A stretch of DNA of 32,000 nucleotides from Pirellula staleyi DSM 6068 (GTDB lineage: Bacteria > Planctomycetota > Planctomycetia > Pirellulales > Pirellulaceae): contig CP001848.1 in NCBI GenBank assembly GCA_000025185.1, positions 210,001-242,000 of the forward strand. Direction: 5' to 3'. Positions 5,755 through 29,818 of this stretch are shown one piece after another. Each line of letters starts with the position of its first letter. Position 1 is the stretch's first letter. The notes beneath the pieces are model-generated. The model made no database searches, was not told the origin of the DNA, and saw only the letters and a program-made list of their open reading frames with translations. The position numbers and the translations under genes are program-made.

Positions 5755-7680
5755 CTAACGCTGGCTCAGTTCATGCACGAAGTCGACCACGGCAATGGCG
5801 TTGTCGACTGGCGTTTGCTGCAGCACACCATGCCCGAGGTTGAAGATGTGACCGGCCCGACCGGCTGCTTCATCGAGCACTAATTTCACGCGCCGCTTCA
5901 GTTCATCGCGCGGGCCGAGCAGTGTGATCGGATCGAGATTCCCTTGCACGCTCCGATCGTAGCCCACCGTCTTCCAAGCGTCGGCGAGACTCACACGCCA
6001 ATCGACGCCAATCACACGTCCACCCGCTTCGGCCAGGAGTGGCAGTAGCGCCGGATTGCCCGTCGCAAAATTGATGACCGGCACGCCCGGCGTGATGCCA
6101 TCGATGATCGACGCGACGTGCGGCAACACATAACGACGATAGTCGTAAGGCCCCAGACAGCCGACCCACGAATCGAACAGCTGCACCACTTGCGCGCCTG
6201 AAGCGATCTGGGCATTCAAGTAGCGAGTGATCGAGCGCGATAGTTTTTGCATCAGCGCTGTCCAGGCTCCTTCGTCGCTATACATCAGCGATTTCGTCGT
6301 CAGATAGTTGCGGCTGCTCCCCCCTTCAATCGCATAGCTGGCGAGTGTGAAAGGGGAACCGGCAAAGCCGATGAGCGGCATATCTTCAGGAAGATCAGCG
6401 CGGGTTTGACGTACGGTTTCAAAGACAAAATCGAGCGAGCCGAGCTCTTCGAGTTCTTTCACGCGGTCGACATCGGCGGCTGTCTTGAGCGGGTTATGAA
6501 TCACCGGCCCCTCTCCTTTGGCGAACTCGAGATCGAGTCCCATCGGTTCGAGAATCGGCAACAGATCGGAGAAGATGATGGCGGCATCGACCCCCAGTCG
6601 CTTGACGGCTGTGCACATGATCTCGCTGCAGAGCGAGGGATTTTTGCACAGGTCGAGGAACGTCACTTGGCCGCGCACCGCGCGATACTCTTCCATGTAG
6701 CGGCCCGCTTGACGCATCAGCCACACCGGCGTGACGTCGGTCGGTTCGCCGCGACAAGCTTTGAGAAACGGGCTGTCGTACCAAGGTGCGTTTTGATCGA
6801 GTGCGTCGGTCATAGGTCCAGAGAGTGTCGACGCGATGCGCCGTTTTCGTGTGAGTACTTGAGAGGATCGTGCAGCGGCCGCGACAACGAGCGGCCCCAT
6901 TTTGGGATGTTCGGGTTCGATATCGACGGGCAAATCTTGCTCGCGCAACATTTCACTGGTGGTTGGTCCGACCGAGGCCACTACCATTTGGCGCAGCGCA
7001 TCGCGCACATCTTGCAGCAAGCCGAGTTGCTCAGCCATGCGGAGCATGTTCACCACTTGATGTGCCGAAGTAAACATCACCACATCGCGCTCGAGCGCCG
7101 CGATGGCGCGAATGTTGGCTTCGAGCTCCGTGGTATCTTCGGGAAAGTCCCACTGATACACGCGCACTTGCAGCACCTGCGCGCCGCGAGCTTCGAGCCC
7201 CGCCACCAGGCTATGGTTGGTGATGCCATACTCTTGTAGGCCGACGTTCAGGTTGGCAATCGGCACTTGCGCGTCGATGGTGGCCAGCAGATCGCGCCAG
7301 GTGTTCGGTTCAGGAACTTTTACCGTGGGGGTGAGTCCCACTTCGCGCATCGCAGCGACCGGCTTGGGGCCGCGACAGATGGTGGTGATGTCGGAGAGCG
7401 CGTGCAAAAATCGTTCGCGGTCGACATGCTTTTCCACCTGCGCGAGCAGATGTCGAAAACCGACGCCGGTCAAAAAAATCATGGCGTCGATGCCGCCGGT
7501 GATCAGTTTTTGAGCAAACTCCACCGCCGCCGGATTGGTGGCGATGGGAACTTCGCGCATGCTCGGACTCACGAACGGCTGGCCCCCCAACTTTTCGATC
7601 AGGCGGGCCATTTCCGCGCGGTTACGACTTTCGAGCGAAGCGACTCGCAGGCCTTCAAAATTTGCAGTTTCGGTGCTCAT
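5755..7680 (-). CDS. hemE: Fused uroporphyrinogen-III synthase (HemD-like, aa 1-~285) and uroporphyrinogen decarboxylase (HemE, aa ~290-641)
   Basis: The C-terminal half carries the HemE signature PFLKACRGEPTDVTPVWLMRQAGRYMEEYRA and ends with the typical FNLGHGV block. The N-terminal half has the two-lobed HEM4-like pattern (LRVASLESRN...IDAMIFLTGVG...VVMFTSAHQV...VASVGPTT). There is no stop codon between the halves. An internal in-frame ATG sits at 6811-6813 (aa 290). Confidence 0.88.
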   Translation of the reverse strand: MSTETANFEGLRVASLESRNRAEMARLIEKLGGQPFVSPSMREVPIATNPAAVEFAQKLITGGIDAMIFLTGVGFRHLLAQVEKHVDRERFLHALSDITTICRGPKPVAAMREVGLTPTVKVPEPNTWRDLLATIDAQVPIANLNVGLQEYGITNHSLVAGLEARGAQVLQVRVYQWDFPEDTTELEANIRAIAALERDVVMFTSAHQVVNMLRMAEQLGLLQDVRDALRQMVVASVGPTTSEMLREQDLPVDIEPEHPKMGPLVVAAAARSSQVLTRKRRIASTLSGPMTDALDQNAPWYDSPFLKACRGEPTDVTPVWLMRQAGRYMEEYRAVRGQVTFLDLCKNPSLCSEIMCTAVKRLGVDAAIIFSDLLPILEPMGLDLEFAKGEGPVIHNPLKTAADVDRVKELEELGSLDFVFETVRQTRADLPEDMPLIGFAGSPFTLASYAIEGGSSRNYLTTKSLMYSDEGAWTALMQKLSRSITRYLNAQIASGAQVVQLFDSWVGCLGPYDYRRYVLPHVASIIDGITPGVPVINFATGNPALLPLLAEAGGRVIGVDWRVSLADAWKTVGYDRSVQGNLDPITLLGPRDELKRRVKLVLDEAAGRAGHIFNLGHGVLQQTPVDNAIAVVDFVHELSQR

Positions 7681-7792: not shown

Positions 7793-8860
7793 TTAGGCAG
7801 CGTTGTCGGCCTTGTCTTTTTTCAGAATCGTGGCCAGTTCGCTCAGCAGACGTTTCCCTTGAGCCGAGCTCAGGAATTTTTCTGCTGTCGTTTCCAGCGC
7901 TGCAATGTTCACCGCATCGGCTTTATCCATATCGTCGTAGGCCGAATCGAGAATCGCCTGGAAACGGAAGTAACGATCTTTCTCGATCAGCTGCGAGGCG
8001 ATGTAGTCCACCGCGTCGGCGGCTCCGTCGAACAGCACGTCGACAATCGGCTTGGCCCACTCGACGGTCCCCCATTCGGTAGCTTCTTCGGCTGTGATCA
8101 CACGTGTGCTCTCCCCTGTACCGAAGCTCGCCACAATCAGGTCCCCCAGGCCGTTGGTCTTCGCATTCGCATCGCAGTTGAATCGTGCCGCCTCTGCGAT
8201 CGCACAAGCCGTAGGGTTGTTCGCCACCACACCACCATCAACAAGCGGGCGCTGCTTATGTACACCATCCACTCCCACGATCATCACATGACAAGGGAAA
8301 TACGTCGGCGCAGCACTCGAAGCCAGGCAGATATCGACCAGACGAAGCTTTGTATGTTCCGGTTTATGATTCTTAAACACGAGCGCCGCACGCGCCGCAA
8401 CGTCGTAGGCCGTTACTAGCGTAGGCTTGACGTGCAGATCACCAAACTCCATGTCGGCGAAAACTGCTTCGAGCTCGGCGCGGAGTCCATCAGGCTGATA
8501 CTTCGGCGCGCTCGCGCCGTCTTGAGGTAACCGGACCAAACGATCCCACAGCCGCGATGCCCGGCTCGGAAACACATTCATCCCACGTTCTTTGTAGAGC
8601 GAAACGATTTCTGCGGGCTTCTTTCCGGCGGAAATCGCGCAGGCCAAAATCGCGCCGGTGCTGGTCCCCGCGATGAGATCGAAGTAATCGCGCAGCGGAC
8701 CACCAAGCTTGTCCTCGAGTGCTTGAAGCCAGATGGCGGTCATGAGTCCACGAATGCCACCACCATCGAGCGAGAGTACACGGCGAATCGGATGCTTGGG
8801 GGACGGAGTTGTTTTGGCCATGGTGCAGGTCCTGACAGAAAACTTGGTAAGAATCCTCAT
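7793..8860 (-). CDS. Patatin-like phospholipase
   Basis: Oxyanion loop LSLDGGGIRG, nucleophile elbow GTSTGA (GxSxG), and catalytic Asp motif VDGGVVANNP. ATG 8821 (MAKTTPSP...) is an alternative, probably better, start than ATG 8860. Confidence 0.9.
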   Translation of the reverse strand: MRILTKFSVRTCTMAKTTPSPKHPIRRVLSLDGGGIRGLMTAIWLQALEDKLGGPLRDYFDLIAGTSTGAILACAISAGKKPAEIVSLYKERGMNVFPSRASRLWDRLVRLPQDGASAPKYQPDGLRAELEAVFADMEFGDLHVKPTLVTAYDVAARAALVFKNHKPEHTKLRLVDICLASSAAPTYFPCHVMIVGVDGVHKQRPLVDGGVVANNPTACAIAEAARFNCDANAKTNGLGDLIVASFGTGESTRVITAEEATEWGTVEWAKPIVDVLFDGAADAVDYIASQLIEKDRYFRFQAILDSAYDDMDKADAVNIAALETTAEKFLSSAQGKRLLSELATILKKDKADNAA

Positions 8861-9294
8861 TCACGAGTGCTTAACATCCCTTATTGAGGGAGATACGCGG
8901 TGCCAATTATGGCCGACTGTACAGCAGTTCGCGAAACAGTTTCTGGAAATTTCCTGCTCGTTTTTGGAAAGAAATCGGAAACAAAGAGGCTCGGTTTTAC
9001 GCCCAGCAACGATGTGCCACTCGGCTGACCTGGACCGGTGAGGGAAATCTTCGGGAATGTCGCGATCGTACAGCCACAGCAGCGTCTGGGCTGGGTGATG
9101 GCCCCCAACGAAGTCGAACTTTTGGTTGCAGCAAGCCGTAAGAAAATCGCACAATAAGGTTTTGATGCGACTGCGAATCCACCCTTTTCCACAGCGCCTT
9201 GAACCAACCCGTTTCCTTGGTTTCCCTCTTCGCTCGACCCTCGACTTGGCGACGCTCTGCGAGCAGCGCTAGTGGCGCGTGCGAGGTGGGTGAC

Positions 9295-9792
9295 ATGCAC
9301 CAGCAGACGGGGCTTGAAGCGTCGGCTTTGGCTTTCCTTTTCCTTCGAGAACCCGAGTCCTTCCTAAACCAGGGAAACTTCGCCGTGAACCACGTCACCC
9401 ACTTTTGCCCACCTCAGGCGCTCGACTGTCTGTTTTGTCGCGAGGCCGGGGCATCCGGCGCGAAGTCCTTGCTCGCGGAAAAAACCACGCGAGATAGTGG
9501 CGCGCGAGCCCCTGGCCTTGCGTGCCCATCGTGCGGCCTTACGCAGGACGAGATCGAATCGATCACCGCGCGCTTTCGGGCCTGCGCCAGCGAAGTGCTC
9601 GAGACCGAAATCCCCAAGCTATCGATGCACACCACGCTCAATGAGCTCGGCGCCGATTCGCTCGCCACCATCGAACTACTGGTGAGAATCGAACAGCAGT
9701 TTGGTGTGACGATCAACGAGCGCACGGCTGAAGACTTCGCCACCGTGGGAGATGTGGTGGCGTTCCTCGCGCGGCAGTCGCGGCGACGATAA
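9295..9792 (+). CDS. Acyl carrier protein domain with an N-terminal Cys-rich (CxxC...CxxC) extension
   Basis: The C-terminal 75 aa align by eye with ACP: IESITARFRACASEVL...LNELGADSLATIELLVRIEQQFGVTINERTAEDFATVGDVVAFL, compared with E. coli AcpP ...[22 protein letters not shown]...IPDEEAEKITTVQAAIDYI. The phosphopantetheine Ser lies in GADSL. The upstream segment reads HFCPPQALDCLFC-x29-CPSC. The start is uncertain: track start 9199, ATG 9295, or an in-frame GTG near 9385. Confidence 0.7.
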   Translation: MHQQTGLEASALAFLFLREPESFLNQGNFAVNHVTHFCPPQALDCLFCREAGASGAKSLLAEKTTRDSGARAPGLACPSCGLTQDEIESITARFRACASEVLETEIPKLSMHTTLNELGADSLATIELLVRIEQQFGVTINERTAEDFATVGDVVAFLARQSRRR

Positions 9793-9915: not shown

Positions 9916-11073
9916 ATGACCACCGCGACTACCCCCATCGATCAACTGTCGGCTGAATTCGCGCAAGGAGGCCCCACGGCGACACTCGCGAAGGCGGCGG
10001 AAATCCTGAAACAGCAGCGTAAATATCACGAGCTGTTTGAAGTTCTTAAGATGCAATTGCGGCATCGGCTCTCCCTTCCAATCACCGGTGGCGAAGTGGC
10101 CGACGATCTCAGCGAAGCAACGCGCAATGCGCTCGAGGAAGGACTCGTCGACGCTTGTCGTCAGGTCGGAACGCTACTGCTCGAGCAAGGAAGTGTCCGC
10201 GAAGGCTGGATGTACCTGCGACCTGTCGGGGACAAAAAATTAGCCCAGTCGCTGCTCGAAAAAATTGAAGCCGACGAAGAGAACAGCGAAGACCTGATTG
10301 AAGTTTGCCTGCACGAGGGGATCGATCTTGGTCGTGGATTCGAGCTTGTACTCGACAGCTACGGCACTTGCTCGGCGATCACCACCTACGATCAGTCGGT
10401 GGCACGACGTCCAGCAGAAGAACAAGTTCCGGCCGCTCGCAAGTTGCTCGAGCGTGTGCACCGCGATTTGGTGGCGAGTGTGAAAACCGACATCGCCCGC
10501 CAAGAGGGTGCTCAGCCGAAAGAGTCGACACTCGCCGGACTGCTCGCCGATCGCGACTGGCTGATGCAGGAAGGGACTTATCACCTCGACACGACGCACC
10601 TGGCCTCAACGGTGCGAATCGCGCGGGTCTTTAACGACCGGGCCGATGTAGAGAAAGCACTCGACCTAACGGCTTACGGTTTGCGACTGGCCGAGCAATT
10701 TCAATATCAAGGGGACGAGCCTTTCCCTGCGACCTATCCCCATCACAAGCTGTTCTTTAGCGCGCTCTTGGGCCGTGATATCGACGCCGCTTTGCAACAT
10801 TTTCGCGAGAAAGCGGAACTGCTCGACGTGCAGTACAACGGCACGGTGGCAATTGATGTTTATGTCGATCTGCTGCGTCGCCTCGGGCGACCTGGCGAAG
10901 CGCTTCGAGAGGCGATTCGGATGAGCCCCGCTGCTGGTCAGCCGGCAGGGCTTTCTCTCTCGCTGCTGCAACTCGCCAGCGAGGCGGGGGACTTCGAAAG
11001 CCTGATGCACTACTGCCGCGAGCGGGGCGATCTGCTCGGCTACACTGCCGCCCTCGTCCGCAGCGCGAAATAG
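9916..11073 (+). CDS. Hypothetical protein, probably all-alpha / TPR-like
   Basis: 385-aa ORF with an ATG start, genome-typical GC3-rich codons and no low complexity. I recognise no family motif. Confidence 0.7.
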   Translation: MTTATTPIDQLSAEFAQGGPTATLAKAAEILKQQRKYHELFEVLKMQLRHRLSLPITGGEVADDLSEATRNALEEGLVDACRQVGTLLLEQGSVREGWMYLRPVGDKKLAQSLLEKIEADEENSEDLIEVCLHEGIDLGRGFELVLDSYGTCSAITTYDQSVARRPAEEQVPAARKLLERVHRDLVASVKTDIARQEGAQPKESTLAGLLADRDWLMQEGTYHLDTTHLASTVRIARVFNDRADVEKALDLTAYGLRLAEQFQYQGDEPFPATYPHHKLFFSALLGRDIDAALQHFREKAELLDVQYNGTVAIDVYVDLLRRLGRPGEALREAIRMSPAAGQPAGLSLSLLQLASEAGDFESLMHYCRERGDLLGYTAALVRSAK

Positions 11074-18291: not shown

Positions 18292-21009
18292 ATGACGATC
18301 GAAATGGCTTGCCCGCACTGTCAAAACGTACTGAAGTTTCGCGACGAACTGGCGGGGCGCAAGGGGAAGTGCCCCAAGTGCACCGGGGTGATCGAAGTGC
18401 CGCAAGTCGCCGCCGCAGCCCCAGCTGCTGCAGTTCCGGCCTCGAAACCCGCACCTAAGCCAGCAACTGCCAAACCGGCGGGACCTGCAACTAGCGCCAC
18501 CAAACCGGCGGCGGCGAAACCAGCCGCTGCGGCCAATCCGACAGCAGCGCCGGTTCGGCCGGCCCATCCAGTTCGTCCACCGCAAGCCAAACCACTGACA
18601 GCCGCCCCTTCGGCCGCTTCTCCCGCTGCGCGTGGACCAATTGCCTTCGACGCCCCCGATTCCCCCTTCATTCTCGAGCCAGCAGCTGCCACCACAGCGC
18701 CGCAGCCTCAGGTAGCACCGTCCCCCGCAGTCGGACCAACGGTCGCCGGAGTCTCGGTCGCCTCCACTGCCTTCAGCCCGACCAATGCCCCCACTCGCTC
18801 GCCACAGGTTGGGGCTGCAGCGCCGCTGATGGGCGAATCGCTGCGACAACAAGTGATGGGAGGCTTTCTCGGCCCGATTCAACCAGTCCCTGTTTCGTTT
18901 TCCTATCGACTCGGCATTATCCTGTCGGCGATGGTGATGCTGCTGATGCCGATCGTCTATTTTTCGATGATCGGCGTTGTCGCACTCGCCATGTGGTGGC
19001 ACCTCACCAACAACATGGGAATTCTCGGCGCCTCGCGCGGACGCGGCGGCGTGTTCCTGTTCATCATCTACTTGATGCCGGTTGTCGTAGGTGCCGCGCT
19101 CATCTTTTTCATGATCAAACCACTCTTCTCGCGCTCGAGTGGTCGCAACGTCATCCGTTCACTTTCCCCGCAAAGCGATCCGCTGCTGTTCGAGTTTGTT
19201 CATCGTGTCTGCGCGATCGTCGGAGCCCCTGCCCCTCGTCGTATCGATGTCGACTGCGACATCAACGCATCGGCCGGTTTTCGCAATGGCATTTTCAGTT
19301 TAATGGGAAGCGACCTGGTTCTCACCATTGGCTTGCCACTGGCGGGCGGCCTTTCGCTCGAGCAGTTTGCCGGCGTTTTGGCCCACGAATTCGGCCATTT
19401 TGCGCAAGGCACTGGGATGCGCATCACCTACATCACACGCTCAATCAACCACTGGTTTCTGTTCGTGGTCTATCAGCGCGATCGGTGGGACGACATGCTC
19501 GTCGATGCTTCGCAGTCGTACGACATACGCATCTCGTGGGTCTTCTACCTCGCGCGATTTGTGATCTGGATTGTCCGGATGGTGCTGCTGGTGCTGATGA
19601 AAATCGGCCATGCCGCCACCGGCTACATGCTGCAGCAGATGGAATACGACGCCGATCGCTACGAAGCTCGCGTCGGTGGCAGTCACACGTTTGAAGCAAC
19701 TTCGCGACAGATTCAAGTGCTGGGTCTCGCTCATCGTGGCGCACAGGCCGATCTCGAATTCTTCTTCAAGGAAGGTCGACTCGCTGACAACTTGCCGCGA
19801 CTCATCCTGGCGAATGTGCGACAGCTTCCGGCCGAAGCGTTGGAGTTCATCAACGACAACATCAAGAACGGCAAGACCGAACTGTTCGACACGCATCCTT
19901 GCGACCGCGATCGCATTACCAGCGCGTGGCAAGAACAGGCACCGGGCGTTTATCGCGGTTCGCTCCCTGCTTCGGTGCTCTTTACCGACTACGACACCCT
20001 CGCGCGAATCGTGACGTGGGATTACTACTTCGACATTTTTGGCGACAAGCTGAAGCGCGAGCAGTTGCATCCGGTCGAACAGATGGTCGAGCGTAGCGAT
20101 CGCGAAATGGCGGTGAGCAAGTCACTCGATCACTTCTATCTCGATGCGTTTTCGCCGCTGCGTCCTCTCCTGTTGCCCGCCTACACCATCACACCGACCA
20201 CCGATGGCGACGGGACGAAGCGTCAGCTGATTCAAGCGCGCAACGAGCAGATGTCGGCCTGCCTCACCTACCGCCAAGCGCTTAAGCATTTCAAAACGAT
20301 CGACAAAAATCTCGTCGAAGCAGCGCGCGCGATGGTGATCTACCAGGCTTCGGCGGTTCCCGATCCGCAGCAGTTCGAGCACTACTTTAATAGCTCGCGG
20401 GAAGCGTACGAGTTTCAGTATCGTCAGCAGCAAGAGCTAGTGACTTGCTGTGGACTGATGCAACGTTTCGAGACCGCGATTGGCTGGCGCGTGTACAGTG
20501 CCCTCGTGCTGCTGGCGAACACCAAAGTGCAAGCCCGCATTGAAGGGGCAGCGGAGAAGTTTCAGCAGCTCTCGAAACTGCTCCCTGTCGTTACGGTGTT
20601 CGCCGCGCGGCATCAGGCGGTGCTTGATGTGCGTAACAGTTTGTCGCAGATCAACACCTTCATGGGACACTACGAAGCGAATCAGCAGAACGGTGCGTTT
20701 TTCTCGAAAGCCAACGAACTGCTAAGCGCGCTCTCTTTGAAACTCATCACGCTGGCCGATTTGCTCGACAAGGTCGACTATCCGTTCGATCATGCCGAGG
20801 GGAAAATCTCGCTCCGCAAATTTTTGCTCCCCGAGAATCCCGACCCGCAAAATGTGGGGCAAACCGCCGACTGCGCCGACAAGTTGCTCGACAACTTGAT
20901 CTCGGTCTACGTGCGCTGCGTCGGCAGACTCTGTGTCGGTGCGCTCGAAGTCGAGAAAGCGTTGGGACTAGAGCCGCTGGTTTCACCTCCGGTGGAAAAA
21001 GAAAAATAG
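18292..21009 (+). CDS. M48-family zinc metalloprotease with N-terminal MJ0042-type zinc ribbon, Ala/Pro-rich linker, TM helices and a long C-terminal helical domain
   Basis: N-terminus MTIEMACPHCQNVLKFRDELAGRKGKCPKCTGVIEVP. HExxH in FAGVLAHEFGHFAQG. The third-ligand region MEYDADRYEA matches the E..AD motif of M48. Several hydrophobic helices flank the catalytic domain. Confidence 0.88.
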   Translation: MTIEMACPHCQNVLKFRDELAGRKGKCPKCTGVIEVPQVAAAAPAAAVPASKPAPKPATAKPAGPATSATKPAAAKPAAAANPTAAPVRPAHPVRPPQAKPLTAAPSAASPAARGPIAFDAPDSPFILEPAAATTAPQPQVAPSPAVGPTVAGVSVASTAFSPTNAPTRSPQVGAAAPLMGESLRQQVMGGFLGPIQPVPVSFSYRLGIILSAMVMLLMPIVYFSMIGVVALAMWWHLTNNMGILGASRGRGGVFLFIIYLMPVVVGAALIFFMIKPLFSRSSGRNVIRSLSPQSDPLLFEFVHRVCAIVGAPAPRRIDVDCDINASAGFRNGIFSLMGSDLVLTIGLPLAGGLSLEQFAGVLAHEFGHFAQGTGMRITYITRSINHWFLFVVYQRDRWDDMLVDASQSYDIRISWVFYLARFVIWIVRMVLLVLMKIGHAATGYMLQQMEYDADRYEARVGGSHTFEATSRQIQVLGLAHRGAQADLEFFFKEGRLADNLPRLILANVRQLPAEALEFINDNIKNGKTELFDTHPCDRDRITSAWQEQAPGVYRGSLPASVLFTDYDTLARIVTWDYYFDIFGDKLKREQLHPVEQMVERSDREMAVSKSLDHFYLDAFSPLRPLLLPAYTITPTTDGDGTKRQLIQARNEQMSACLTYRQALKHFKTIDKNLVEAARAMVIYQASAVPDPQQFEHYFNSSREAYEFQYRQQQELVTCCGLMQRFETAIGWRVYSALVLLANTKVQARIEGAAEKFQQLSKLLPVVTVFAARHQAVLDVRNSLSQINTFMGHYEANQQNGAFFSKANELLSALSLKLITLADLLDKVDYPFDHAEGKISLRKFLLPENPDPQNVGQTADCADKLLDNLISVYVRCVGRLCVGALEVEKALGLEPLVSPPVEKEK

Positions 21010-21075
21010 TGACTCGCTCTGCAGCATCGATCTGGGGCGTTGCGGCGGCACGTGTCGTGATCGATAACAGGCTCT

Positions 21076-22887
21076 ATGCCCACCCGCGACGAACTGACGA
21101 CAACCTACCAGCAGCTGCGCGATGAACTTCTCGCCGAGCGCACAGCGCAAGGCTATTGGGAGGGAGAACTCGCCACATCGGCCGTTTCCACAGCGACGGC
21201 TGTTTCGGCCCTTTCGCTTGCCACCCGCGCGGCGATCGATAGCGGCACGTTCGTCGCGGAAATTCCGGCCTGGACGTCGCTCGCCACACGCGGCGCTGAA
21301 TGGCTCGCCGAGCATCAAAATCCTGATGGCGGTTTTGGCGATACCGACCGAAGTTACTCGAACATCGCGACGACGTATCTGGTCACCGCTGCGCTGTCGC
21401 TCGCTCCTGGCCAGCAGCCGTTTCGCGCAGTGATCGATCGCGCCGATAGCTACATTGCCCAGCATGGAGAACTCGCCGGGCTACGTCGTCGCTATGGGAC
21501 CGACAAGACCTTTGTCGTGCCGATCATGACGAACCTGGCGCTTGCCGGTCGCGCTAGTTTTCGCGAGATCCCGGCTCTTCCGTTCGAACTGGCGTGCGTG
21601 CCGCAGTCGTGGTATCGGCTGATGAAGATGCCGGTGGTGAGCTATGCCATTCCAGCTTTGGTGGCGATCGGGCAAGCTCACTATTTTCTGGCTCCTCCGT
21701 GGAATCCGATCACGCGCATCGTCCGCTCGATGAGCATCGAGCGCAGCTTGCGTGTGCTGCTGTCGATGCAGCCTGAGAGTGGCGGCTATCTGGAAGCGAC
21801 ACCGCTCACCAGTTTTGTGGTGATGAGTCTGGCGGCGACCGGTCGGTTGTCGCATCCGGTCACGCAATCGGGTTTGCGATTCATCAAGGACTCGGTTCGA
21901 CCCGATGGAAGTTGGCCGATCGATACGAACCTGGCGACCTGGAACACAACGCTCGCCACGCTCGCACTGGCCGCGCGAGGTGATGAGCGCGACCTCGCGA
22001 GCATCGTATCGCCCGAGTTGGTGCGCTGGATTTTGTCGTGTCAGCATTTGGTGCGACACCCGTTTACAGGGGCCGAGCCAGGTGGCTTTGGCTGGACCAA
22101 TCTGAGCGGCGCAGTCCCCGATGCCGACGATACGCCCGGCGCTCTGTTGGCGCTTGCTGCTGTTCGCGATCTACCGTCGCTCGCCACTCTCGCCAGCGAG
22201 ATCGATCGGTCGGCTGAACTCGCGGTGCGCTGGCTTTTGAAACTGCAGAATCGCGATGGAGGCTGGCCCACGTTTTGCAAAGGGTGGGGACAGCTGCCGT
22301 TTGATCGAAGTGGCAACGACTTGACCGCCCATGCCATTCGCGCGCTTGAAGCGTGGAAAGATCGTCTCGCCGCGGCGGGAAAAATCTCGGCCAGCGACCT
22401 TCGCACCATCGACACCTCCCTGGCGCGTGGCTGGCGCTATCTCGAGCAGCATCAGTCGGCCGACGGCTCGTTTTTGCCCCTGTGGTTTGGGAATCAGGAC
22501 CGTGCGGATGAGGACAATCCGGTCTACGGCACCGCCAAAGTGCTGGCAGCTTGCCGTGATACCAATCGGTGGAAGTGTCCATTGGCCCGGCGGGCGACAG
22601 CGTGGATGCTGACCCAGCAAAACGCCGATGGGAGCTTCGGAAGCAGCCTCGAGGAGACATCACTCGCGGCCGAAGTGCTTCACCAGGAAGCACTTGAGTC
22701 AACAGCAGCAGCCCAGGGGCTGGAGCGCGCCCTCGCTTGGATGGTTGCGCAAGTAGCGTCGGGCAAACATCGCCGGGCCGAGCCAATTGGTTTCTACTTC
22801 GCGAAGTTGTGGTATTATGAGAGGCTCTATCCTGTGACGTTTTCGCTCAGCACGGTGGGGCGCGTGTTACGCACACTCGCTCCGTGA
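21076..22887 (+). CDS. Squalene-hopene cyclase family class II terpene cyclase (short, 603 aa)
   Basis: DxDD motif in PGGFGWTNLSGAVPDADDTPGALLAL (DADD at 22120-22131), compared with PGGFAFQFDNVYYPDVDDTAVVVWAL in A. acidocaldarius SHC. QW-type repeats: QNPDGGFG, LQNRDGGWPTF, QSADGSFLPLWFGN, QQNADGSFG. The C-terminal PIGFYFAKLWYYERLYPVTFSLSTVGR resembles the SHC C-terminus. Confidence 0.88.
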   Translation: MPTRDELTTTYQQLRDELLAERTAQGYWEGELATSAVSTATAVSALSLATRAAIDSGTFVAEIPAWTSLATRGAEWLAEHQNPDGGFGDTDRSYSNIATTYLVTAALSLAPGQQPFRAVIDRADSYIAQHGELAGLRRRYGTDKTFVVPIMTNLALAGRASFREIPALPFELACVPQSWYRLMKMPVVSYAIPALVAIGQAHYFLAPPWNPITRIVRSMSIERSLRVLLSMQPESGGYLEATPLTSFVVMSLAATGRLSHPVTQSGLRFIKDSVRPDGSWPIDTNLATWNTTLATLALAARGDERDLASIVSPELVRWILSCQHLVRHPFTGAEPGGFGWTNLSGAVPDADDTPGALLALAAVRDLPSLATLASEIDRSAELAVRWLLKLQNRDGGWPTFCKGWGQLPFDRSGNDLTAHAIRALEAWKDRLAAAGKISASDLRTIDTSLARGWRYLEQHQSADGSFLPLWFGNQDRADEDNPVYGTAKVLAACRDTNRWKCPLARRATAWMLTQQNADGSFGSSLEETSLAAEVLHQEALESTAAAQGLERALAWMVAQVASGKHRRAEPIGFYFAKLWYYERLYPVTFSLSTVGRVLRTLAP

Positions 22888-23050
22888 CCACCTTAAGCGA
22901 GAGGCCGAGTGACAGCGTAGAGCCCTGCCGCAGCAGGCTCGTGGTCATCGCTGCTAGCTTGTGCCAGTTCGTGGTCCGTTGACGACTCCAGCTTGAGTAA
23001 CCCCCGCCCGACTGCAACCTGCCCCCTCCGCGTATCGTGAGGATGACCTT

Positions 23051-25072
23051 TTGGACGACGCCTCCACTTCTGCGATCAACGAGCGAAGCTCGCCCGATGA
23101 TATTGCGACGGGAATTGTCGCGCACTCATCTCGCCCGCATGCTGCGCACGACGAAGCCACCGAGAGCAATCATGCGAGCGACGGCGTGAAAGTGCGCGGC
23201 CACTTGGCAGCCGAAGGTGAAATGCCGGACGATCTGGCCCTGCTCTCGCAGCGGAAAAGCAAACGGCGTCAAACCTCGCACTTGAAACTCGTCCCTGAAA
23301 CCAAAACCTTGCGCGAAGATCTGCGTGCTCGCGCGGCAGCTGCGACAGCGGTGCTCGATAAGACGCGTCCTCTCTCGAAAGATGAGATGGAAGCACTCGC
23401 GCGGCGCGTCTTGGCCGAGGCTGGCCAAGGGGAAGGTTTTGTCGGATGGATGATGGTGGTGCTCGCCACCGAATTTTGGCGAGATCAAGTCGCATCGATT
23501 CCACCGAGTCGCCGACTGTTCCTTTTGCCACACTGCTTGAAGCATGCCGAAGGATGCCCGGCCGACTACGACGAGTTCGGTCTCGAGTGCAAAAAGTGCG
23601 GCGCTTGCAGCATCGCCGATTTCCGCGGACTGGCCGACGAGATGGGCTACAAAGTCCTCGTCGCCGAAGGTTCGCCGATCGTGCTCAAAATCATCGTCAG
23701 CGGCTATGTCGACGCGATTGTCGGTGTGGCATGCCTCAACGTGCTCGAAAAAGCGATCGATAAGATTCTGCTCGCTGGCATTCCTTGCATGGCAGTGCCG
23801 CTCCTCTCGAGCGACTGCCGCAACACCTCGGTCGACGACGACTGGGTGATGGAGATGATCAAGGCCGAGCCTCGCCCCGACGCGCAGCAGACACGTTCGT
23901 ACGTACACTTGCTCCGCGCGGCATCGTCTCTCTTCAAGCCAGAAGAACTCGAGCGACTTTCGCCACGCGTGCGTGGTGGCAAACGGCTGTCGGAGCTTGG
24001 CGAAGGGGAACAGCTCGATCCGCTCGCAGCCACCGAATCGATCGCCTACGACTTCCTGGCCAAAGGTGGCAAGTATTCGCGACCGTTCATCACCATGGCA
24101 GTGCACGACGCGCTCACAGGTGGTCACGGCACCCTCCCCAAAATGCCGGCCGGTGGGGGTGAAGTGCAGCTGGATATTCCCGACACAGTGAAGCGTGCCG
24201 CACTCTCGATCGAGACGTTCCACAAAGCATCGCTGGTGCACGACGACATTGAAGATGACGACGCTTTTCGCTACGGCGAAGAGACGGTGCATCGTCGTTT
24301 TGGAACACCCACGGCGATCAACGTTGGCGACTATCTGATTGGGATGGGTTATCGGCTCGTCAGCAAACAGTCGCGAGCGATGGGGCCCGATACAGCAGCC
24401 GACATTCTCGACATCCTGGCCGATGCCCACATTCGCTTATCCGAAGGACAAGGGGCCGAACTGCTGTGGCGCGATGCGCGCGACAAACGTCTCTCGCCGC
24501 TCGATGCCTTGAAGATCTACGCCCTGAAGACAAGTCCTGCGTTCGAAGCAGCACTCCTGAGTGGCGCGCGACTGGCAGGCGACGTGACCCAGTATCTCGA
24601 ACCGCTGCGGCAGTTCGCACGTAACCTTGGGGTTGCGTTTCAGATTCTGAACGATCTCGGCGACTGGCAAGGCGATAGTCATAACAAGATGTCGGCTGGC
24701 GGCGACACCCTGGCAGGACGTCCGACGGTCCTGTGGGCCTTGGCGCTAGAGTCGCTGGCTCCTGAGAAGCAGAGCGAACTGCTGCAGCTCGTTACCGAGC
24801 ATGCCGATAGTCAAATGCATCCGCAGGCCCGGCTCGCGCGGGTTCGACAGCTGTATCAAGAGGCGGGTGTGTTTGAAAAGGCTTCGCGGCTGATTGAAAA
24901 ACATCAGCAGCGCGCGGAATCGATCGCCGACAAGATTGAGCCTGAAGAACTCCGGCGCCTCATGTACTACCTGATCGATTCGGTGCTCGAAGCGCCACGC
25001 ACAGCAGAGCCTGCGATTGTTCCGCTGACACTTGCCACCGCGAGTAGTCAGGTGGAGGGACCGCGAGCCTAG
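23051..25072 (+). CDS. Fusion protein: DUF116-like Cys-rich domain (aa ~150-262) plus trans-polyprenyl diphosphate synthase domain (aa ~325-640)
   Basis: DUF116-like block: LFLLPHCLKHAEGCPADYDEFGLECKKCGACSIADFRGLADEMGYKVLVAEGSPIVLKII..GYVDAIVGVACLNVLEKA. Synthase block: FHKASLVHDDIEDDDAFRYGEETVHRRFG (first DDxxD at 24242-24262), KTSPAFEAAL, and GVAFQILNDLGDW (second motif reads NDLGD at 24650-24664). The start is uncertain: TTG 23051, with several in-frame ATGs downstream. Confidence 0.82.
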   Translation: MDDASTSAINERSSPDDIATGIVAHSSRPHAAHDEATESNHASDGVKVRGHLAAEGEMPDDLALLSQRKSKRRQTSHLKLVPETKTLREDLRARAAAATAVLDKTRPLSKDEMEALARRVLAEAGQGEGFVGWMMVVLATEFWRDQVASIPPSRRLFLLPHCLKHAEGCPADYDEFGLECKKCGACSIADFRGLADEMGYKVLVAEGSPIVLKIIVSGYVDAIVGVACLNVLEKAIDKILLAGIPCMAVPLLSSDCRNTSVDDDWVMEMIKAEPRPDAQQTRSYVHLLRAASSLFKPEELERLSPRVRGGKRLSELGEGEQLDPLAATESIAYDFLAKGGKYSRPFITMAVHDALTGGHGTLPKMPAGGGEVQLDIPDTVKRAALSIETFHKASLVHDDIEDDDAFRYGEETVHRRFGTPTAINVGDYLIGMGYRLVSKQSRAMGPDTAADILDILADAHIRLSEGQGAELLWRDARDKRLSPLDALKIYALKTSPAFEAALLSGARLAGDVTQYLEPLRQFARNLGVAFQILNDLGDWQGDSHNKMSAGGDTLAGRPTVLWALALESLAPEKQSELLQLVTEHADSQMHPQARLARVRQLYQEAGVFEKASRLIEKHQQRAESIADKIEPEELRRLMYYLIDSVLEAPRTAEPAIVPLTLATASSQVEGPRA

Positions 25073-25170
25073 CAATCGCACGCTTGTTTCGACTCGCGCG
25101 GGGCACGAGCATTGGGGAGCTCGGCCGTGTGCGGGATGTCCGACCTTCCTCTAGCCGGCCGACATCTGCC

Positions 25171-25725
25171 ATGCCATCACCAAGTCCCACGCCCGGTCCC
25201 ATTCCCGACCTCAACGAGCTTGTGGCGCTCTTTTATCACGAGCCCCAGGAGCTCGGCGTTTTCGAGCAAGTCGACGAGCAAGAGGTGCCAGAGCCTTTTC
25301 ATCAGCTCCTCGCGCATCATGCTCACATGACCGTCACCGTCGAGGCGTTTCACAAGACGCCAGTCGACGTACAGGTTCTCTCGACGCGCCGCGAAGGGAT
25401 GATGTATGCCCGCAAGATTTTGCTCACCCGTCAAACCGACGGTGCCGTCGTTCAATTTGGGCTCGTGCAGCTGAACTTCAACTACCTGGCCCCCGAAGTG
25501 CGCGACGAAATTGCCCTCGAGCAAACACCGCTCGGTCGCGTCCTGATCCGCCGCAACGTGCTACGCGAAGTGCAGCTGGTCGGCCTGTTCCGCATCGAAC
25601 CAGGGCCCGACTTGCAGCGTCATTTGGGAACGCGCGAAGGAGAAGTGGTCTACGGCCGAACAGCGCTGATCTACTGCGATGGCCAGCCCGCCGTCGAACT
25701 TCTCGAAATCGTCACTCCCTCGTAA
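25171..25725 (+). CDS. Chorismate-lyase / DUF98-like (UbiC fold) protein; function tentative
   Basis: Coding is likely: GC3-rich, and starting about 100 nt after the previous stop. Similarity by eye to the UbiC/DUF98 layout: LLAHHAHMTVTVEAF..VDVQVL, REGMMYARKILLT...GAVVQFGLVQL, TPLGRVL, YGRTALIYCDGQPAVELLEIVTP. ATG 25171 is preferred over the track TTG 25084. Confidence 0.55.
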   Translation: MPSPSPTPGPIPDLNELVALFYHEPQELGVFEQVDEQEVPEPFHQLLAHHAHMTVTVEAFHKTPVDVQVLSTRREGMMYARKILLTRQTDGAVVQFGLVQLNFNYLAPEVRDEIALEQTPLGRVLIRRNVLREVQLVGLFRIEPGPDLQRHLGTREGEVVYGRTALIYCDGQPAVELLEIVTPS

Positions 25726-26083
25726 TTCATCGTTGCACGAGGGTTTGCACCACCATTTTGCGTTAGCAGCTGAGCAAGCATCTCTTCATAACTTGCTTAG
25801 CTATTCTCTCATAACTCTTGCGCACTTACCGAAGAGTTACCACCGACTTCGTGCAGAGTTTTGCACGATTTCTTAAGCACTTATCCAGCTACGCTGAGTT
25901 CGCGCGGACCAGACCTCTGGCGCAGCGAAATTCTTCGCGCGGTTTTCTCGGAAAAATGTGGACACACGTTTTTCCCTCGCTAAAATCCGCCAGCACACCT
26001 ACCTGAAGATCCTCTAGGCGACTTCCCCTCTCCTCCCCCTCCTTTCGACGTTTCGAGCCTCTAGCTTTTGGCCCCACCTGCCG

Positions 26084-27346
26084 ATGCTTTTCGATTGTCT
26101 CATCCTCGGCGCAGGTCCTGCGGGACTCGCACTCGCCGCGCGTCTTAGCGCCACCGGGGCTCGCGTGCTTGTGGTTGATCGCGATTCAGCGGATCGCGGC
26201 GCGCGAAACATCCATCTCTCGCCCCTCGCATCGCAGCCCGTCTTGCCGACCGTCTGGAAGCAGCTCGAAGCACTCGGACTTGCGGCGGAACTTCGCCCGC
26301 AGGTCGCGCTCGGAGCACCAGCTGGTGTGCAGATCGTCACTTGCAGCGGCCAAACCGTCGCACAAGTGGCGTGTGTCGATCAGCAGCACTTTGACGACGA
26401 TCACGCGCTGCCGCCGCTTGCTTGGGTTTCGCGTCAGTCGCTCGAGCAAGCGCTCACTAAACTGGCTATCGCGCGCGGCACTACGATTCTTCGTAGCACC
26501 TCGGTCCTCGATTTGTCCCTCGATCCCAGCAGTTCTCCCCGCGTGCTGCTGGCAGAAGATCACGCCGAACCACGCTGGCTCGAAGTTCCACTCGTCGTCG
26601 ATGCCAGTGGTCAGCAAGCGATTGTGGGGCACCATCTGCGGCTGATCGATCCGGCCGGTGGTGGCAGTCACTCCGCATTAGTGGGGCTGTATGAAAACGC
26701 CTCGCTCGCCTCCTCGGCCACGTCGTTTCGCACGCTGTTTTTGCCCCAGCATTTACGCTCCCGCTTATGGCTTGCACCACAGCCGGGGGGAATGGCAACG
26801 GTCGGTATCGTGGGTCCGCGTGCCACGCTGCTGCGGGACCGCAGTAGTTTTGCCGAGCTACTGGAAGACGAACTCGTCGAGTGTCCGGCGCTTGCCCATT
26901 GTTTGCTCAGCGCCAAAATGGTGGGGCCACTTTCGGTGGTTCGCGCGACAGGGCACAAGCTGCTGCGTGGCGGTGGTGAAGGCTGGCTCGCTGTCGGTGA
27001 TGCTTTTGAAACGCTCGATCCGCTCCCCGGATGGGGCGTAGTGACGGCGCTCGAGTCGGCTGCCTACGCCGCTCCGGCGATCCTCGAAGCGATTGCCAGC
27101 AGAACGTCGTCGGCCGAACTACTCACGCGCTGGCAACGTGCATTTCAAGCGCAGCTGGCGCCACGCAAGCTACTGCTACTCGCCTTGGCCTCCCCCGGGT
27201 TTGGGGTCGCCGACTTCCTGCGGCAATTTCCCGAGCACGAGCCGATTTTGGCCCAATTGCTGGTTGCCGGGGCTGTTCCGGCCGATAGCAGCTTCGAAGA
27301 GGACCTCGCCGCCCAGCTCGTGCAACTGCGGCCAACCGCAGGTTGA
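26084..27346 (+). CDS. FAD-dependent oxidoreductase, geranylgeranyl-reductase / flavin monooxygenase-like
   Basis: N-terminal dinucleotide fold FDCLILGAGPAGLALAARLSATGARVLVVDRD. Also LVVDASGQQAIVG (DASG block) and WLAVGDAFETLDPLPGWGV (GD motif). Confidence 0.82.
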   Translation: MLFDCLILGAGPAGLALAARLSATGARVLVVDRDSADRGARNIHLSPLASQPVLPTVWKQLEALGLAAELRPQVALGAPAGVQIVTCSGQTVAQVACVDQQHFDDDHALPPLAWVSRQSLEQALTKLAIARGTTILRSTSVLDLSLDPSSSPRVLLAEDHAEPRWLEVPLVVDASGQQAIVGHHLRLIDPAGGGSHSALVGLYENASLASSATSFRTLFLPQHLRSRLWLAPQPGGMATVGIVGPRATLLRDRSSFAELLEDELVECPALAHCLLSAKMVGPLSVVRATGHKLLRGGGEGWLAVGDAFETLDPLPGWGVVTALESAAYAAPAILEAIASRTSSAELLTRWQRAFQAQLAPRKLLLLALASPGFGVADFLRQFPEHEPILAQLLVAGAVPADSSFEEDLAAQLVQLRPTAG

Positions 27347-27598
27347 TACTCCTCAACAGGGGAGATCGTGCACCCTATTCAGCAGACAGCGGGCATCGGC
27401 AATTTTGTGCAGGTGCGAGTTTTCAGCTCGCGTGCGAATCACCCGCGCTCCGACGAAAGTTGGAGGTGGAGCATAATGCTCGTGAATTACGATTTCGCAA
27501 GACTATACTGACGACTCTCACAGCTACGGTGAATCCATCGTAGAGTTCAAACTTCGGGGGCGTTCGTCTTCGAAGTTGTTGTCGAAGGTAGCCGCCGT

Positions 27599-29818
27599 AT
27601 GGTTAGCCAACTCTTCACACTCAAGTCGCTGCTTTGTTTTGTCGTAACCTTTGCGTGCCTCGAAGGTGGCGCCGAGCTCGGCCAACTACTCTCGTTCCCG
27701 CCGCGCGACTTTGCCACTTGCTGGCCCCCCAGCGGAATCATCGTCGGCCTCTTGGCATTTGCTCCGCGCCGCTGCTGGCCGGCGATGCTCATCGGGGCCG
27801 TGGCTGGCAATTTGTTTCACAACTGGCGCATGAACATCGGTTTCGAAACCAATGTGGTCTTCACCTGCGCCAACTTCCTCGAGGTCTCTCTGGGTGGGTA
27901 TCTGCTGCAGCGACTTTTCGGTCAACCGTTCCTGCTCAACTCGATCTCGCGCGTCCTGACGTTGGTCCTTTTGGTGGGTCTGGGTTGTACCACGTTAAGC
28001 GCCTTTCTCGGCGCGACGATGGTCAACCAGTCGGGCACCATGACGGAGTATTGGCGAGAATGGTTTTTGTGGTGGGCCGCCGATGTGGTGGGTGTGGTTC
28101 TGTTTGTGCCGATCACCCTCGCAGTCCTCGAACTGCCGCAGAACATTCACCGGTTTGATATCAAAAAAGCGTTGGAAGCCTCCGTACTTTTTGGACTCCT
28201 CACGCTCATCTCGGTCGTCGTTTTCTTTTACGCCGATCCGAACGATAGCCCGCTCCGGTTTCCGTTTTACACCTTTCCCCTGCTCGCTTGGGCTGGCCTC
28301 TCGTTTGGTCGCAGTGGCGGAGCCTTAGCCACCATCATCGTCGGCGTCTGCGGCACTTGGGCCACAACGCGAGGGCTCAGTGTGTTCGCCAGCCATCACG
28401 CGCCGGTGACCAGCCAGGTGCTGGTGCTGCAAGCGTTTCTGATTGTCACGATGCTCACTTCGCTGCTCTTCTCGGTGATGTTCGAGTCGCTAACTACCGC
28501 ACGAAACGAACTACAGTCAACCAACAACCTGCTCTCCGCCATCATGGAAGGGACCAGCGATGGGGCATTCGTGAAAGATGCCTCGGGACGCTATCTGCTG
28601 CTCAACTCCGCCGGTGCTCGAAACTTTGGCCGGCCGATGGAAGAAGTGATCGGCAAGACCGACCACGAACTCTTGCCTCGTGAAATGGCCGACTTCGTTC
28701 GCAACCGCGACCTGAAAATTCTTACGAGCGGCGTTGTCACCACCACGGAAGATACCGTCTCGTTCGGTGAACAGCCACGCACGTTTTTAACGACGAAAGG
28801 TCCGTATCGCGATGCCCGTGGGAATGTGATTGGACTGGCAGGAATTTCGGCCGATATCACGTCGCTGAAAGAAGCCGAAGAAAAACTGCGCCGCGCGAAC
28901 GAAACACTCGAAACACGCGTCACCGAGCGGACCATGGAACTCACCACTGCGAACCTGCAGCTGATGAAGGAGATGACCGAACGATCGCGTGTGGAACTGC
29001 GACTCCGCGAGCAGCAGGCCGAACTGGCCCACGTAGCCCGCGTGGCTGCGCTCGGTGAAATGGCGGCGGGACTTGCCCACGAACTCAATCAGCCACTGCA
29101 TGCAATCAGCAACTACGCGCGGGGAGTTGTGCGGCGCATCGATTCCGCCCGCTCCACTCCCGCCGACCTACGCGAGGCACTCGCGGAAATCGTTGCCGAA
29201 TCCGATCGCGCGGCTGCCATCATCCGCCGCGTCAGCAGCTTTGTCAGCAAGCGTCCTTATGCTCGCCATCCCCTACTGATCGACGACTTGATTCGCAACG
29301 TCTCGACTCTGATGACCGCCGAAGCCAACCGGCGTCATTCACGACTCGAGCTCACACTCGGCGCCAGCAGCAGCTGGGTTCTCGGCGATGCCGTACAGCT
29401 CGAACAGGTGCTGGTGAACCTTGTTCGCAACGGTCTCGAGGCGATGGAAACAACCCCCGAACCAGCGCGGCTGTTGCAGATCGAATCGTCCCTCGTCGGC
29501 GACAAAGTGATGGTGGAAGTGCGCGACCAAGGTTGCGGCGTTCCGGATGGGCTCGAAACCAAACTCTACGATGCGTTTTTCACCACCAAGTCGCACGGGC
29601 TCGGGATGGGACTCGCCATCAGCCGCTCGATTGTTGAAGCGCACGAAGGGGAACTTTCTTCGAGCCCACGTTTGCCACGCGGCACCACCTTTCGCTTTCT
29701 GATTCCCGTCCACGACGAAAACCAAGCAGCCGAAAACGACTCGGATCTGTCAGACGATTCATCGAGCGTTGCACCTCCAGCGACACCCAACACCACAATT
29801 GTCAGCACCACCAACTAA
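27599..29818 (+). CDS. Sensor histidine kinase: MASE1-like membrane domain, PAS, HisKA, HATPase_c
   Basis: The membrane block with CWPPSGIIVGLLAF...AGNL resembles MASE1. PAS: LSAIMEGTSDGAFVKDASGRYLLLNSAG. A coiled coil follows, then H-box AAGLAHELNQPL, N-box LVNLVRNGLEAM, and G-boxes DQGCGVP and GLGMGLAISRSIVEAHEGEL. Confidence 0.9.
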   Translation: MVSQLFTLKSLLCFVVTFACLEGGAELGQLLSFPPRDFATCWPPSGIIVGLLAFAPRRCWPAMLIGAVAGNLFHNWRMNIGFETNVVFTCANFLEVSLGGYLLQRLFGQPFLLNSISRVLTLVLLVGLGCTTLSAFLGATMVNQSGTMTEYWREWFLWWAADVVGVVLFVPITLAVLELPQNIHRFDIKKALEASVLFGLLTLISVVVFFYADPNDSPLRFPFYTFPLLAWAGLSFGRSGGALATIIVGVCGTWATTRGLSVFASHHAPVTSQVLVLQAFLIVTMLTSLLFSVMFESLTTARNELQSTNNLLSAIMEGTSDGAFVKDASGRYLLLNSAGARNFGRPMEEVIGKTDHELLPREMADFVRNRDLKILTSGVVTTTEDTVSFGEQPRTFLTTKGPYRDARGNVIGLAGISADITSLKEAEEKLRRANETLETRVTERTMELTTANLQLMKEMTERSRVELRLREQQAELAHVARVAALGEMAAGLAHELNQPLHAISNYARGVVRRIDSARSTPADLREALAEIVAESDRAAAIIRRVSSFVSKRPYARHPLLIDDLIRNVSTLMTAEANRRHSRLELTLGASSSWVLGDAVQLEQVLVNLVRNGLEAMETTPEPARLLQIESSLVGDKVMVEVRDQGCGVPDGLETKLYDAFFTTKSHGLGMGLAISRSIVEAHEGELSSSPRLPRGTTFRFLIPVHDENQAAENDSDLSDDSSSVAPPATPNTTIVSTTN

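Follow-up and report, generated by a model that had tools for sequence, protein, structure and literature searches.

An SHC-like cyclase, a DUF116::polyprenyl synthase fusion and a chorismate-lyase-fold protein form a syntenic unit in Pirellula staleyi and other Planctomycetota that may act on a head-to-tail polyprenoid

The subject of this study is a 32,000-nt stretch of the genome of Pirellula staleyi DSM 6068 (CP001848.1 positions 210,001–242,000), hereafter the window, in which coordinates are given unless another locus is named. Four co-directional open reading frames (ORFs) lie on its + strand at 21076–22887, 23051–25072, 25084–25725 and 26084–27346, exactly as an initial annotation, which grouped them as an atypical terpenoid cluster, had described. 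The first encodes a 603-aa class II (beta-gamma) terpenoid cyclase resembling squalene–hopene cyclase (SHC-like; 21076–22887), the second a 673-aa fusion of DUF116 with a trans-polyprenyl diphosphate synthase (PPS; 23051–25072), the third a protein with the chorismate-lyase/DUF98 fold, and the fourth a 420-aa flavin adenine dinucleotide (FAD)-dependent flavoprotein of the halogenase/geranylgeranyl reductase (GGR) superfamily (26084–27346). The third ORF is open from 25084, and comparison of homologue N-termini makes 25168 the likelier start, giving a protein of ~185 aa (25168–25725). An M48 gene precedes the cyclase gene with a gap of 66 bp, in which a consensus scan found no terminator-like site, in agreement with the initial description. 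Among the window ORFs scanned with Pfam and NCBIfam, neither hpnCDE, hpnH and hpnG, whose absence had already been pointed out, nor a YtpB-like (DUF2600) tetraprenyl-beta-curcumene synthase was found, and an Rfam scan of the window detected no riboswitch or other RNA in the intergenic gaps.

The cyclase was matched above gathering (thresholds ~26) by both Pfam models of the SHC family, SQHop_cyclase_C with 96.4 bits and SQHop_cyclase_N with 59.9 bits, and it bears a DADD motif at residues 349–352 (D349-A-D351-D352-T353) and five QW-like repeats of the type Q..(D/S)G(G/S)(F/W/Y), so that its assignment as a class II cyclase held. It was also suspected of not being an ordinary SHC, and the scores agree: against the NCBIfam equivalog hopene_cyclase (TIGR01507) it reached 82.9 bits versus a cutoff of 431, spanning residues 288–526 only, and the best PDB match, A. 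acidocaldarius SHC, had an E-value of only 1e-11, with the PGGxxW...PDxDDT segment aligned gap-free. D349-A-D-D-T, H419 and Y484 of the cyclase align with D374–D377, H451 and Y495 of SHC. Across 81 cyclase orthologues, D349, D351, D352, T353, H419 and W340 (SHC F365) are invariant and Y484 is kept in 80, and the position of SHC W489 is taken by an invariant Gln. Since the catalytic residues are invariant and SHC W489 is changed to Gln, the protein looks like an active proton-initiated enzyme with a pocket differing from that of SHC; judged by its sequence, it is probably catalytically competent and is not a canonical SHC. Relatives of the cyclase number thousands, every named one belonging to Planctomycetota, and at least 593 species were found to have one in a scan that took one genome for each species. 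Among cultured genera, Anatilimnocola comes closest (~59% identity in the cyclase).

In the fusion protein, Pfam DUF116 (PF01976) and polyprenyl_synt (PF00348) scored 135 and 147 bits, respectively, both above gathering, which bears out the fusion proposed for this ORF; the Cys-rich DUF116 domain with its CxxCxxC motif covers approximately aa 121–270 and the synthase domain approximately aa 331–650. The synthase domain looks functional, keeping the GGKxxRP, first Asp-rich motif (FARM), GQ, KT and second Asp-rich motif (SARM) regions. The FARM has no insertion and reads D398-D-I-E-D402, which is invariant in fusion orthologues, and Ala393 and Ser394 at positions −5 and −4 relative to it are invariant as well. 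By the chain-length rules of trans-prenyltransferases, small residues before the FARM go with products of medium or long chain; as both positions that determine chain length hold small residues here, the fusion probably makes a product of this kind. The SARM reads N534-D-L-G-D, and N534 is invariant in 66 Planctomycetia orthologues. When distant fusion proteins are included, the first SARM position is Asn in 38 and Asp in 36 out of 77, and the gene context is alike; because the two versions share their gene context, Asn is probably tolerated at this position.

The DUF116 part of the fusion is the most conserved segment of the system. Mean pairwise identity over 53 genomes was 0.89 for the DUF116 core (fusion residues 152–262, window 23504–23836), 0.65 for the synthase domain, 0.54 for the cyclase and 0.52 for the third protein, and at least 75 of the 77 fusion sequences keep C162, C169, C180-x2-C183-x2-C186, C228 and C256. 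The core is nearly invariant across orders, set against 0.54 in the adjacent cyclase, a high level of constraint for a domain of unassigned function. Because these cysteines form a ferredoxin-like pattern, it is reasonable to suppose that DUF116 probably holds an Fe–S cluster. The predicted model of the domain, with a pLDDT of 71 and below 50 in the Cys loop, has a flavodoxin-like alpha/beta core, and no fold match in the PDB was significant, the best (E 0.06) being to flavodoxin-like and B12-binding-like domains. Queried with the DUF116 domain, a set of 1.84 billion representatives yielded only 966 proteins; the best full-length matches are mostly 500–690 aa long and carry the domain close to the N-terminus, in keeping with the fusion architecture, and the named ones are from Planctomycetota and Phycisphaerae. 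A literature search for DUF116 found nothing relevant save a Bipolaricaulota cluster with DUF116 near IspH, SHC, HpnH and a polyprenyl synthase.

Regarding the third protein, no Pfam or NCBIfam model, including Chor_lyase/DUF98, gave a match even at E 0.01, and a PDB profile search returned non-significant matches only, with 2NWI at E 0.11. Its AlphaFold (AF2) model, made with 30 homologues, had a pLDDT of 93, and Foldseek with this model gave the A. fulgidus DUF98 protein 2NWI as the best match (E 4e-8, TM up to 0.78), GntR effector (UTRA) domains also among the best PDB matches, and E. coli chorismate lyase (UbiC; 1JD3/1G81) at 6e-5 to 8e-5. The chorismate-lyase/DUF98 fold first suggested for this protein is thus confirmed at the level of the predicted structure. 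It is a fold common also to the non-catalytic UTRA domains. In homologues, Arg82, Glu177 and Glu180 vary little or not at all. Pairing of R82/E180 with UbiC Arg76/Glu155 by hhalign (probability 5%, E 0.0075, against an approximate UbiC sequence) is a lead only towards a UbiC-like ligand site. The third protein resembles UbiC and the DUF98 protein 2NWI in fold, may share with UbiC the ligand-site Arg and Glu, and differs from them in being too divergent for the family models. Other members of the DUF98 family are Rv2949c and Sll1797.

Synteny was evaluated in the best 80 cyclase loci of the at least 593 species, covering Pirellulales, Gemmatales and Planctomycetales. The DUF116::PPS gene lies directly 3′ of the cyclase gene in 71 of the 80; of the nine others, four stop at a contig end, which leaves 71 of 76 evaluable loci. 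The DUF98-like gene comes next in 53 of 62 evaluable loci. Cyclases lacking a PPS neighbour are ordinary orthologues and form no paralogous subclade. Chance is far from accounting for the adjacency of the first three genes, among them the cyclase and PPS genes that the initial annotation had paired, but this does not hold for the FAD gene, a homologue of which (~28% identity) follows the trio in only 6 of the 80 loci, all of Pirellulaceae type. The FAD gene is separated from the third gene by 358 bp. Within this gap a hairpin at 25849–25868 (+ strand, 8 bp stem, T-rich tail), detected in the consensus scan 3′ of the third gene, is the best terminator-like candidate; it is weak evidence alone, yet it agrees with the synteny break 5′ of the FAD gene. 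A sigma-70-like promoter match at 25959–25986 (+ strand, 10 of 12 consensus matches, ~100 bp 5′ of the FAD gene) is the sole match in 20800–27700, where the count found equals the shuffle expectation, and as a promoter of the FAD gene it is only suggestive. On the synteny counts and the gap with its hairpin and promoter-like site, the unit is a three-gene operon with an occasional fourth neighbour, so the proposed four-gene cluster holds for the cyclase, fusion and DUF98-like genes and not for the FAD gene; with its rare adjacency and these two sites, the latter is not a core gene and is probably a separate transcription unit and optional accessory. Neither hpnCDE/sqs nor hpnH/hpnG was found among the recurrent neighbour clusters identified in the 80 loci.

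In more distant lineages the fusion gene occurs with further partners. At locus L083 (5867–15664, with a second copy in L084), co-directional genes encode a ferredoxin-like Fer4 protein, a radical SAM protein, DUF116::PPS, a small toroid (~300-aa Prenyltrans) and an SHC-like cyclase, and after the cyclase a PQQ propeller, a GT4 glycosyltransferase and ABC/FtsX. The first five genes recur in L086 (1–6858); radical SAM, cyclase, fusion and toroid genes occur in L087 (5743–12651) and L088 (6618–12829); and Fer4, aminotransferase, AroD-AroE, radical SAM, fusion and toroid genes occur in L082 (2731–10490, Phycisphaerae). L085, L089 and L090 have the fusion without the cyclase or other module genes. 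Radical SAM and Fer4 genes adjoin the fusion in five of eight distant contexts, and the module radical SAM protein is SPASM/NirJ/AhbD-like, with no equivalog. The genes of the distant modules are homologous to families scattered round the cyclase in the 80 loci, where radical SAM genes were found within 10 kb of it in 19 loci, toroid genes in 12, ABC genes in 9 and GT4 genes in 6. These arrangements suggest that the ancestral module was larger and that two of its genes are all that the window retains. Two assignments of the small toroid were rejected: as a second proton-donating cyclase, because DxDD is missing, and as a zinc prenyltransferase, because it lacks the Zn-binding Cys of protein prenyltransferases. 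In L082 (3667–6454) the AroD-AroE fusion with a class III aminotransferase adjoins the DUF116::PPS gene, and in L089 (3953–4897 and 6631–7752) an Aminotran_4 (PabC/IlvE-type) gene and a shikimate-kinase-domain fusion do so; such shikimate genes in lineages without the DUF98-like gene could be an echo of a chorismate link, or a coincidence.

Cyclases of this kind are already in the literature. Planctomycete SHC-like proteins form a separate clade in published phylogeny (PMC12414744, PMC7306690), and the tree of PMC12414744 has this SHC-like/unknown clade as sister to epoxy-polyprenyl cyclases, outside SHC/OSC. Santana-Molina et al. 2020 (PMC7306690) describe the planctomycete "SHC-like" proteins as alone in keeping the catalytic residues, take their genomic context to suggest non-squalene precursors, and report both that some lineages have SHC with no known squalene route and that Planctomycetes already have HpnCDE. 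In the 2025 article 'The Evolutionary History and Modern Diversity of Triterpenoid Cyclases' (PMC12414744), the substrate of the clade is given as undiscovered and its characterisation as a priority; partner genes of the SHC-like cyclase are not described in the main texts of PMC7306690 and PMC12414744. Our further literature searches found no characterisation of a cyclase of the clade. The window cyclase shares with it the planctomycete origin, the catalytic residues, a length within 550–700 aa and the non-squalene context, nothing contradicts membership, and from these features it almost certainly belongs to the clade. Two outcomes that the initial annotation had named as refuting it, a cyclase nested among true SHCs and neighbours without synteny, were not seen: its neighbours are syntenic and it falls outside the SHCs, a placement taken from the PMC12414744 tree. 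The central idea of the initial annotation is accordingly not new, the clade and its odd context having been published, and the annotation missed both the membership in this orphan clade and the partners recurring elsewhere outside the window (radical SAM, ferredoxin-like, toroid, GT4, ABC/FtsX). New here are the synteny counts, the fold found for the third protein, the DUF116 fusion with its hyper-conserved Fe–S-like domain, and the radical SAM/ferredoxin/toroid module.

Several characterised systems share parts of this arrangement. A. acidocaldarius SHC has the same beta-gamma toroid fold, a DxDD acid partnered by His and Tyr, and repeats of the QW type; the window cyclase differs in being paired with a head-to-tail synthase, with no squalene-synthesis or hpn genes nearby. 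From the hopanoid pathway (HpnCDE, HpnH, HpnG, HpnI, HpnN), the logic of side-chain elaboration and export is resembled by the radical SAM/GT4/exporter module of the distant lineages. The Bacillus sesquarterpene route (HepS/HepT, YtpB, SqhC) likewise combines an SHC homologue with a head-to-tail C35 polyprenoid and a dedicated long-chain synthase, but it is restricted to Bacillota, and SqhC branches next to SHC, outside the SHC-like clade (tree of PMC12414744). Comparison with this route and with meroterpenoids, both brought up in the initial annotation, stays at the level of analogy. The epoxy-polyprenyl cyclases Lon15 (longestin, C40) and AtoE (atolypene, C25), of the sister clade in the 2025 tree, act on all-head-to-tail polyprenyl chains from a cluster-encoded synthase; unlike the window system, both require prior epoxidation of the substrate by a dedicated epoxidase, whereas in the window clade the strong-acid DxDD does not vary and the flavoprotein is not conserved along with the cluster. 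Longestin carries a chorismate-derived aromatic acid. In cyanobacteria, the MstE merosterolic acid pathway also joins an aromatic acid, a prenyl synthase and a cyclase, folding the chain of a prenylated hydroxybenzoate, and it includes a UbiA-type prenyltransferase, of which none is seen in the window. MstE itself differs from the window cyclase in being a single-domain enzyme of ~350 aa with a DxD motif (PMC12414744). A link to the thallusin/ebo meroterpenoids of Planctomycetota was rejected, as the ebo pathway names no such cyclase and the present operon is far more widespread.

Taking these observations together, we think it a shade better than even that the first three genes are the Pirellulaceae form of a Planctomycetota-wide module round an orphan SHC-like cyclase, in which a head-to-tail polyprenoid, and not squalene, is cyclised. 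This non-squalene substrate is the best reading of the locus; direct cyclisation of a polyprenyl chain had been put forward in the initial annotation, and it agrees with the context inference of Santana-Molina et al. 2020. What that annotation observed is confirmed, and its interpretation is partly supported. As we picture the route, the PPS domain would elongate an allylic diphosphate with isopentenyl diphosphate (IPP) to an all-trans head-to-tail polyprenyl diphosphate, probably of medium or long chain. The central Asp of D-x-D-D-T in the cyclase, polarised by His419 and Tyr484, would then protonate the terminal double bond, and the enzyme would fold this chain, or one derived from it, to give a polycycle. 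The chorismate-lyase-fold protein may supply or bind a benzoate-type unit, most simply 4-hydroxybenzoate from chorismate, which may become a polar head group in a step that would need a prenyltransferase from outside the window. The Cys-rich DUF116 domain, probably with its Fe–S cluster, may act with the radical SAM and ferredoxin-like proteins of other lineages in redox or radical tailoring, and an Fe–S/radical SAM step would belong to the ancestral pathway. The FAD gene would be a neighbouring optional accessory, transcribed separately. Gene content, synteny, fold and the conserved catalytic residues are what the data show, whereas the class of substrate, its chain length, Fe–S binding, the aromatic head group and the sequence of steps are deduced.

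A number of points weigh against this reading. A UbiA-type prenyltransferase is found neither in the window nor among the recurrent neighbours, as the initial annotation had seen for the locus itself, leaving the aromatic-head step without an enzyme; versions of the module that branch more deeply lack the DUF98-like gene, so its protein is not essential to the core chemistry; and the radical SAM, Fer4, toroid, GT4 and ABC genes are not in the window. The chain length is read from two residues only, and the nearest PDB and NCBIfam relatives of the fusion are a mix of short- and long-chain synthases. Fe–S binding is read from the cysteine pattern only, in a domain whose model is mediocre. Surveys of planctomycete lipids list hopanoids, sterols and MK-6 and, to our knowledge, no cyclic polyprenoid, and we know of no product of the module. 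Finally, the very high conservation of the fusion could mean a housekeeping role instead.

One such role would be quinone supply, with the fusion as the main medium- or long-chain synthase for the menaquinone side chain and the third protein in aromatic or quinone head-group metabolism, an account that we hold to be unlikely though not negligible; it would leave the cyclase to modify the prenyl tail of a quinone or to be only co-regulated. It draws on the unusual conservation of the fusion (72–77% identity among top matches, 0.89 in the DUF116 core), on its occurrence without the cyclase in L085, L089 and L090, on haem-biosynthesis genes (HemD-HemE, NirJ/AhbD-like radical SAM) that recur nearby, and on the pairing of a PPS with a chorismate lyase, which is classic for benzoquinone pathways (ubiC/ubiA/ispB, or Synechocystis Sll1797). 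However, Planctomycetes are reported to use menaquinone, the head group of which does not come from 4-hydroxybenzoate, MenA, UbiA, UbiD and UbiE are not among the conserved neighbours, and the cyclase–PPS order in 71 of 76 loci, seen again in distant lineages, argues for a pathway shared by the two enzymes. A different role for the synthase, irregular coupling, is very improbable: here the SARM Asn would make it non-head-to-tail and an Fe–S DUF116 would serve as reductase, yielding an alternative, squalene-like symmetric substrate. Chrysanthemyl diphosphate synthase carries the same D-to-N change, N534 does not vary among the Planctomycetia orthologues, and a putative redox domain is fused to the synthase. 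Lineages with SHC and no known squalene route, as described in PMC7306690, would also suit it. Nevertheless, all IPP-binding regions are kept, HpnCDE is already present in Planctomycetes (PMC7306690), and D-type enzymes (36 of 77, with 38 of N type) stand in the same radical SAM–PPS–toroid–cyclase context; this alternation of D and N among orthologues is the reason why irregular coupling was rejected as the principal explanation.

The two further explanations concern the cyclase. That it is an ordinary hopanoid cyclase with coincidental neighbours, the scenario which the initial annotation had set against itself, is close to refuted: homologues are labelled 'squalene--hopene cyclase' in some annotation sources and DxDD and QW-like repeats are present, but the score is one fifth of the curated SHC cutoff, the published phylogeny has a separate clade, the synteny is phylum-wide and SHC Trp489 is replaced by an invariant Gln. 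We give equally little weight to irregular coupling and to the idea that the homologue is non-catalytic, a toroid with ancestral motifs that binds lipid or glycan or is structural. Planctomycetes have many 'prenyltransferase/squalene oxidase repeat' proteins whose role is unknown, and the acid motif is gone from the small toroid partner; in the cyclase, by contrast, D-x-D-D-T, His419 and Trp340 are invariant and Tyr484 nearly so at ~54% overall identity, which points to selection on catalysis.

The flavoprotein and the remaining genes of the window were also analysed. The FAD protein matched FAD_binding_3 with 39 bits and fell below every curated family cutoff (QhpG-type monooxygenase 91.8 versus 240, GG-red-SF TIGR02032 69.9 versus 158.8), and its nearest PDB entries are flavin-dependent halogenases (1.9e-14), with the GGR 3oz2 at 3e-8. 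By inspection it lacks the halogenase WxWxIP, the position reading RLWLAP, and has no Lys, the catalytic residue of halogenases, in the GES-equivalent segment. Its description as GGR-like thus applies at the superfamily level and not at the family level, and the double-bond reductase function once ascribed to it found no support. The trio-following flavoproteins at L023 (14383–15639), L004, L009, L013, L015 and L035 carry a halogenase-type WFWFIP and score 221 bits with a CmlS-type halogenase model and 158.1 with GG-red-SF (cutoff 158.8), and the window copy is a much more divergent relative of them. The M48, RND/MMPL and MASE1-PAS kinase/FixJ regulator genes, which had been listed alongside the cluster, were rejected as linked genes: of the 80 loci, 2 have an M48 homologue close to the cyclase, none has an RND/MMPL homologue there, and at most 2 have homologues of the kinase/regulator pair.

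Elsewhere in the window, a HemD-HemE fusion (uroporphyrinogen-III synthase and decarboxylase; 5755–7680, − strand) and an unannotated 385-aa protein (9916–11073, + strand) have homologues that co-occur 5′ of the cyclase in most of the 9–10 Pirellulaceae loci with either, indicating conserved local synteny with haem genes. A patatin-like phospholipase (7793–8860, − strand) scored 211 bits with the NCBI model for the cGAMP-activated CBASS phospholipase CapV (cutoff 200) and 244 bits with PADLOC phospholipase effector models; no CD-NTase-like protein was seen among the scanned ORFs adjoining it, which makes it a possible CBASS effector of orphan or degenerate kind. A 446-aa PIN-domain::PhoH-like ATPase fusion (3106–4446, − strand) adjoins the MMPL/RND gene (551–3031), and a 197-aa ORF (9199–9792, + strand) is acyl-carrier-protein-like in its C-terminal 75 residues, below curated cutoffs, behind a long unannotated N-terminal extension.

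It is possible, though doubtful, that polycyclic head-to-tail polyprenoids are produced, so far undetected, as membrane lipids across the phylum Planctomycetota. They would be made by a five-gene module, which we propose as tentatively, of a ferredoxin-like protein, a radical SAM protein, an Fe–S DUF116::PPS, an acid-less small toroid and the SHC-like cyclase, and, on a similarly speculative footing, the product might be capped with a chorismate-derived aromatic in Pirellulales and by glycosylation with ABC/FtsX export in others. If true, these lipids would form a hopanoid-like family with a radical chemistry of its own, and orphan terpane biomarkers would have in them a candidate source. The substrate of the clade would constrain how alkene- and epoxide-initiated cyclisation evolved, and might reveal a bacterial origin for orphan polycyclic terpane fossils (PMC12414744, PMC7306690). 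The locus and its relatives offer a concrete minimal gene set for this question, consisting of the cyclase, the fusion, the chorismate-lyase-fold protein, the radical SAM protein, the ferredoxin-like protein and the small toroid, and they provide a first functional context, in isoprenoid metabolism and with probable Fe–S chemistry, for the otherwise uncharacterised DUF116.

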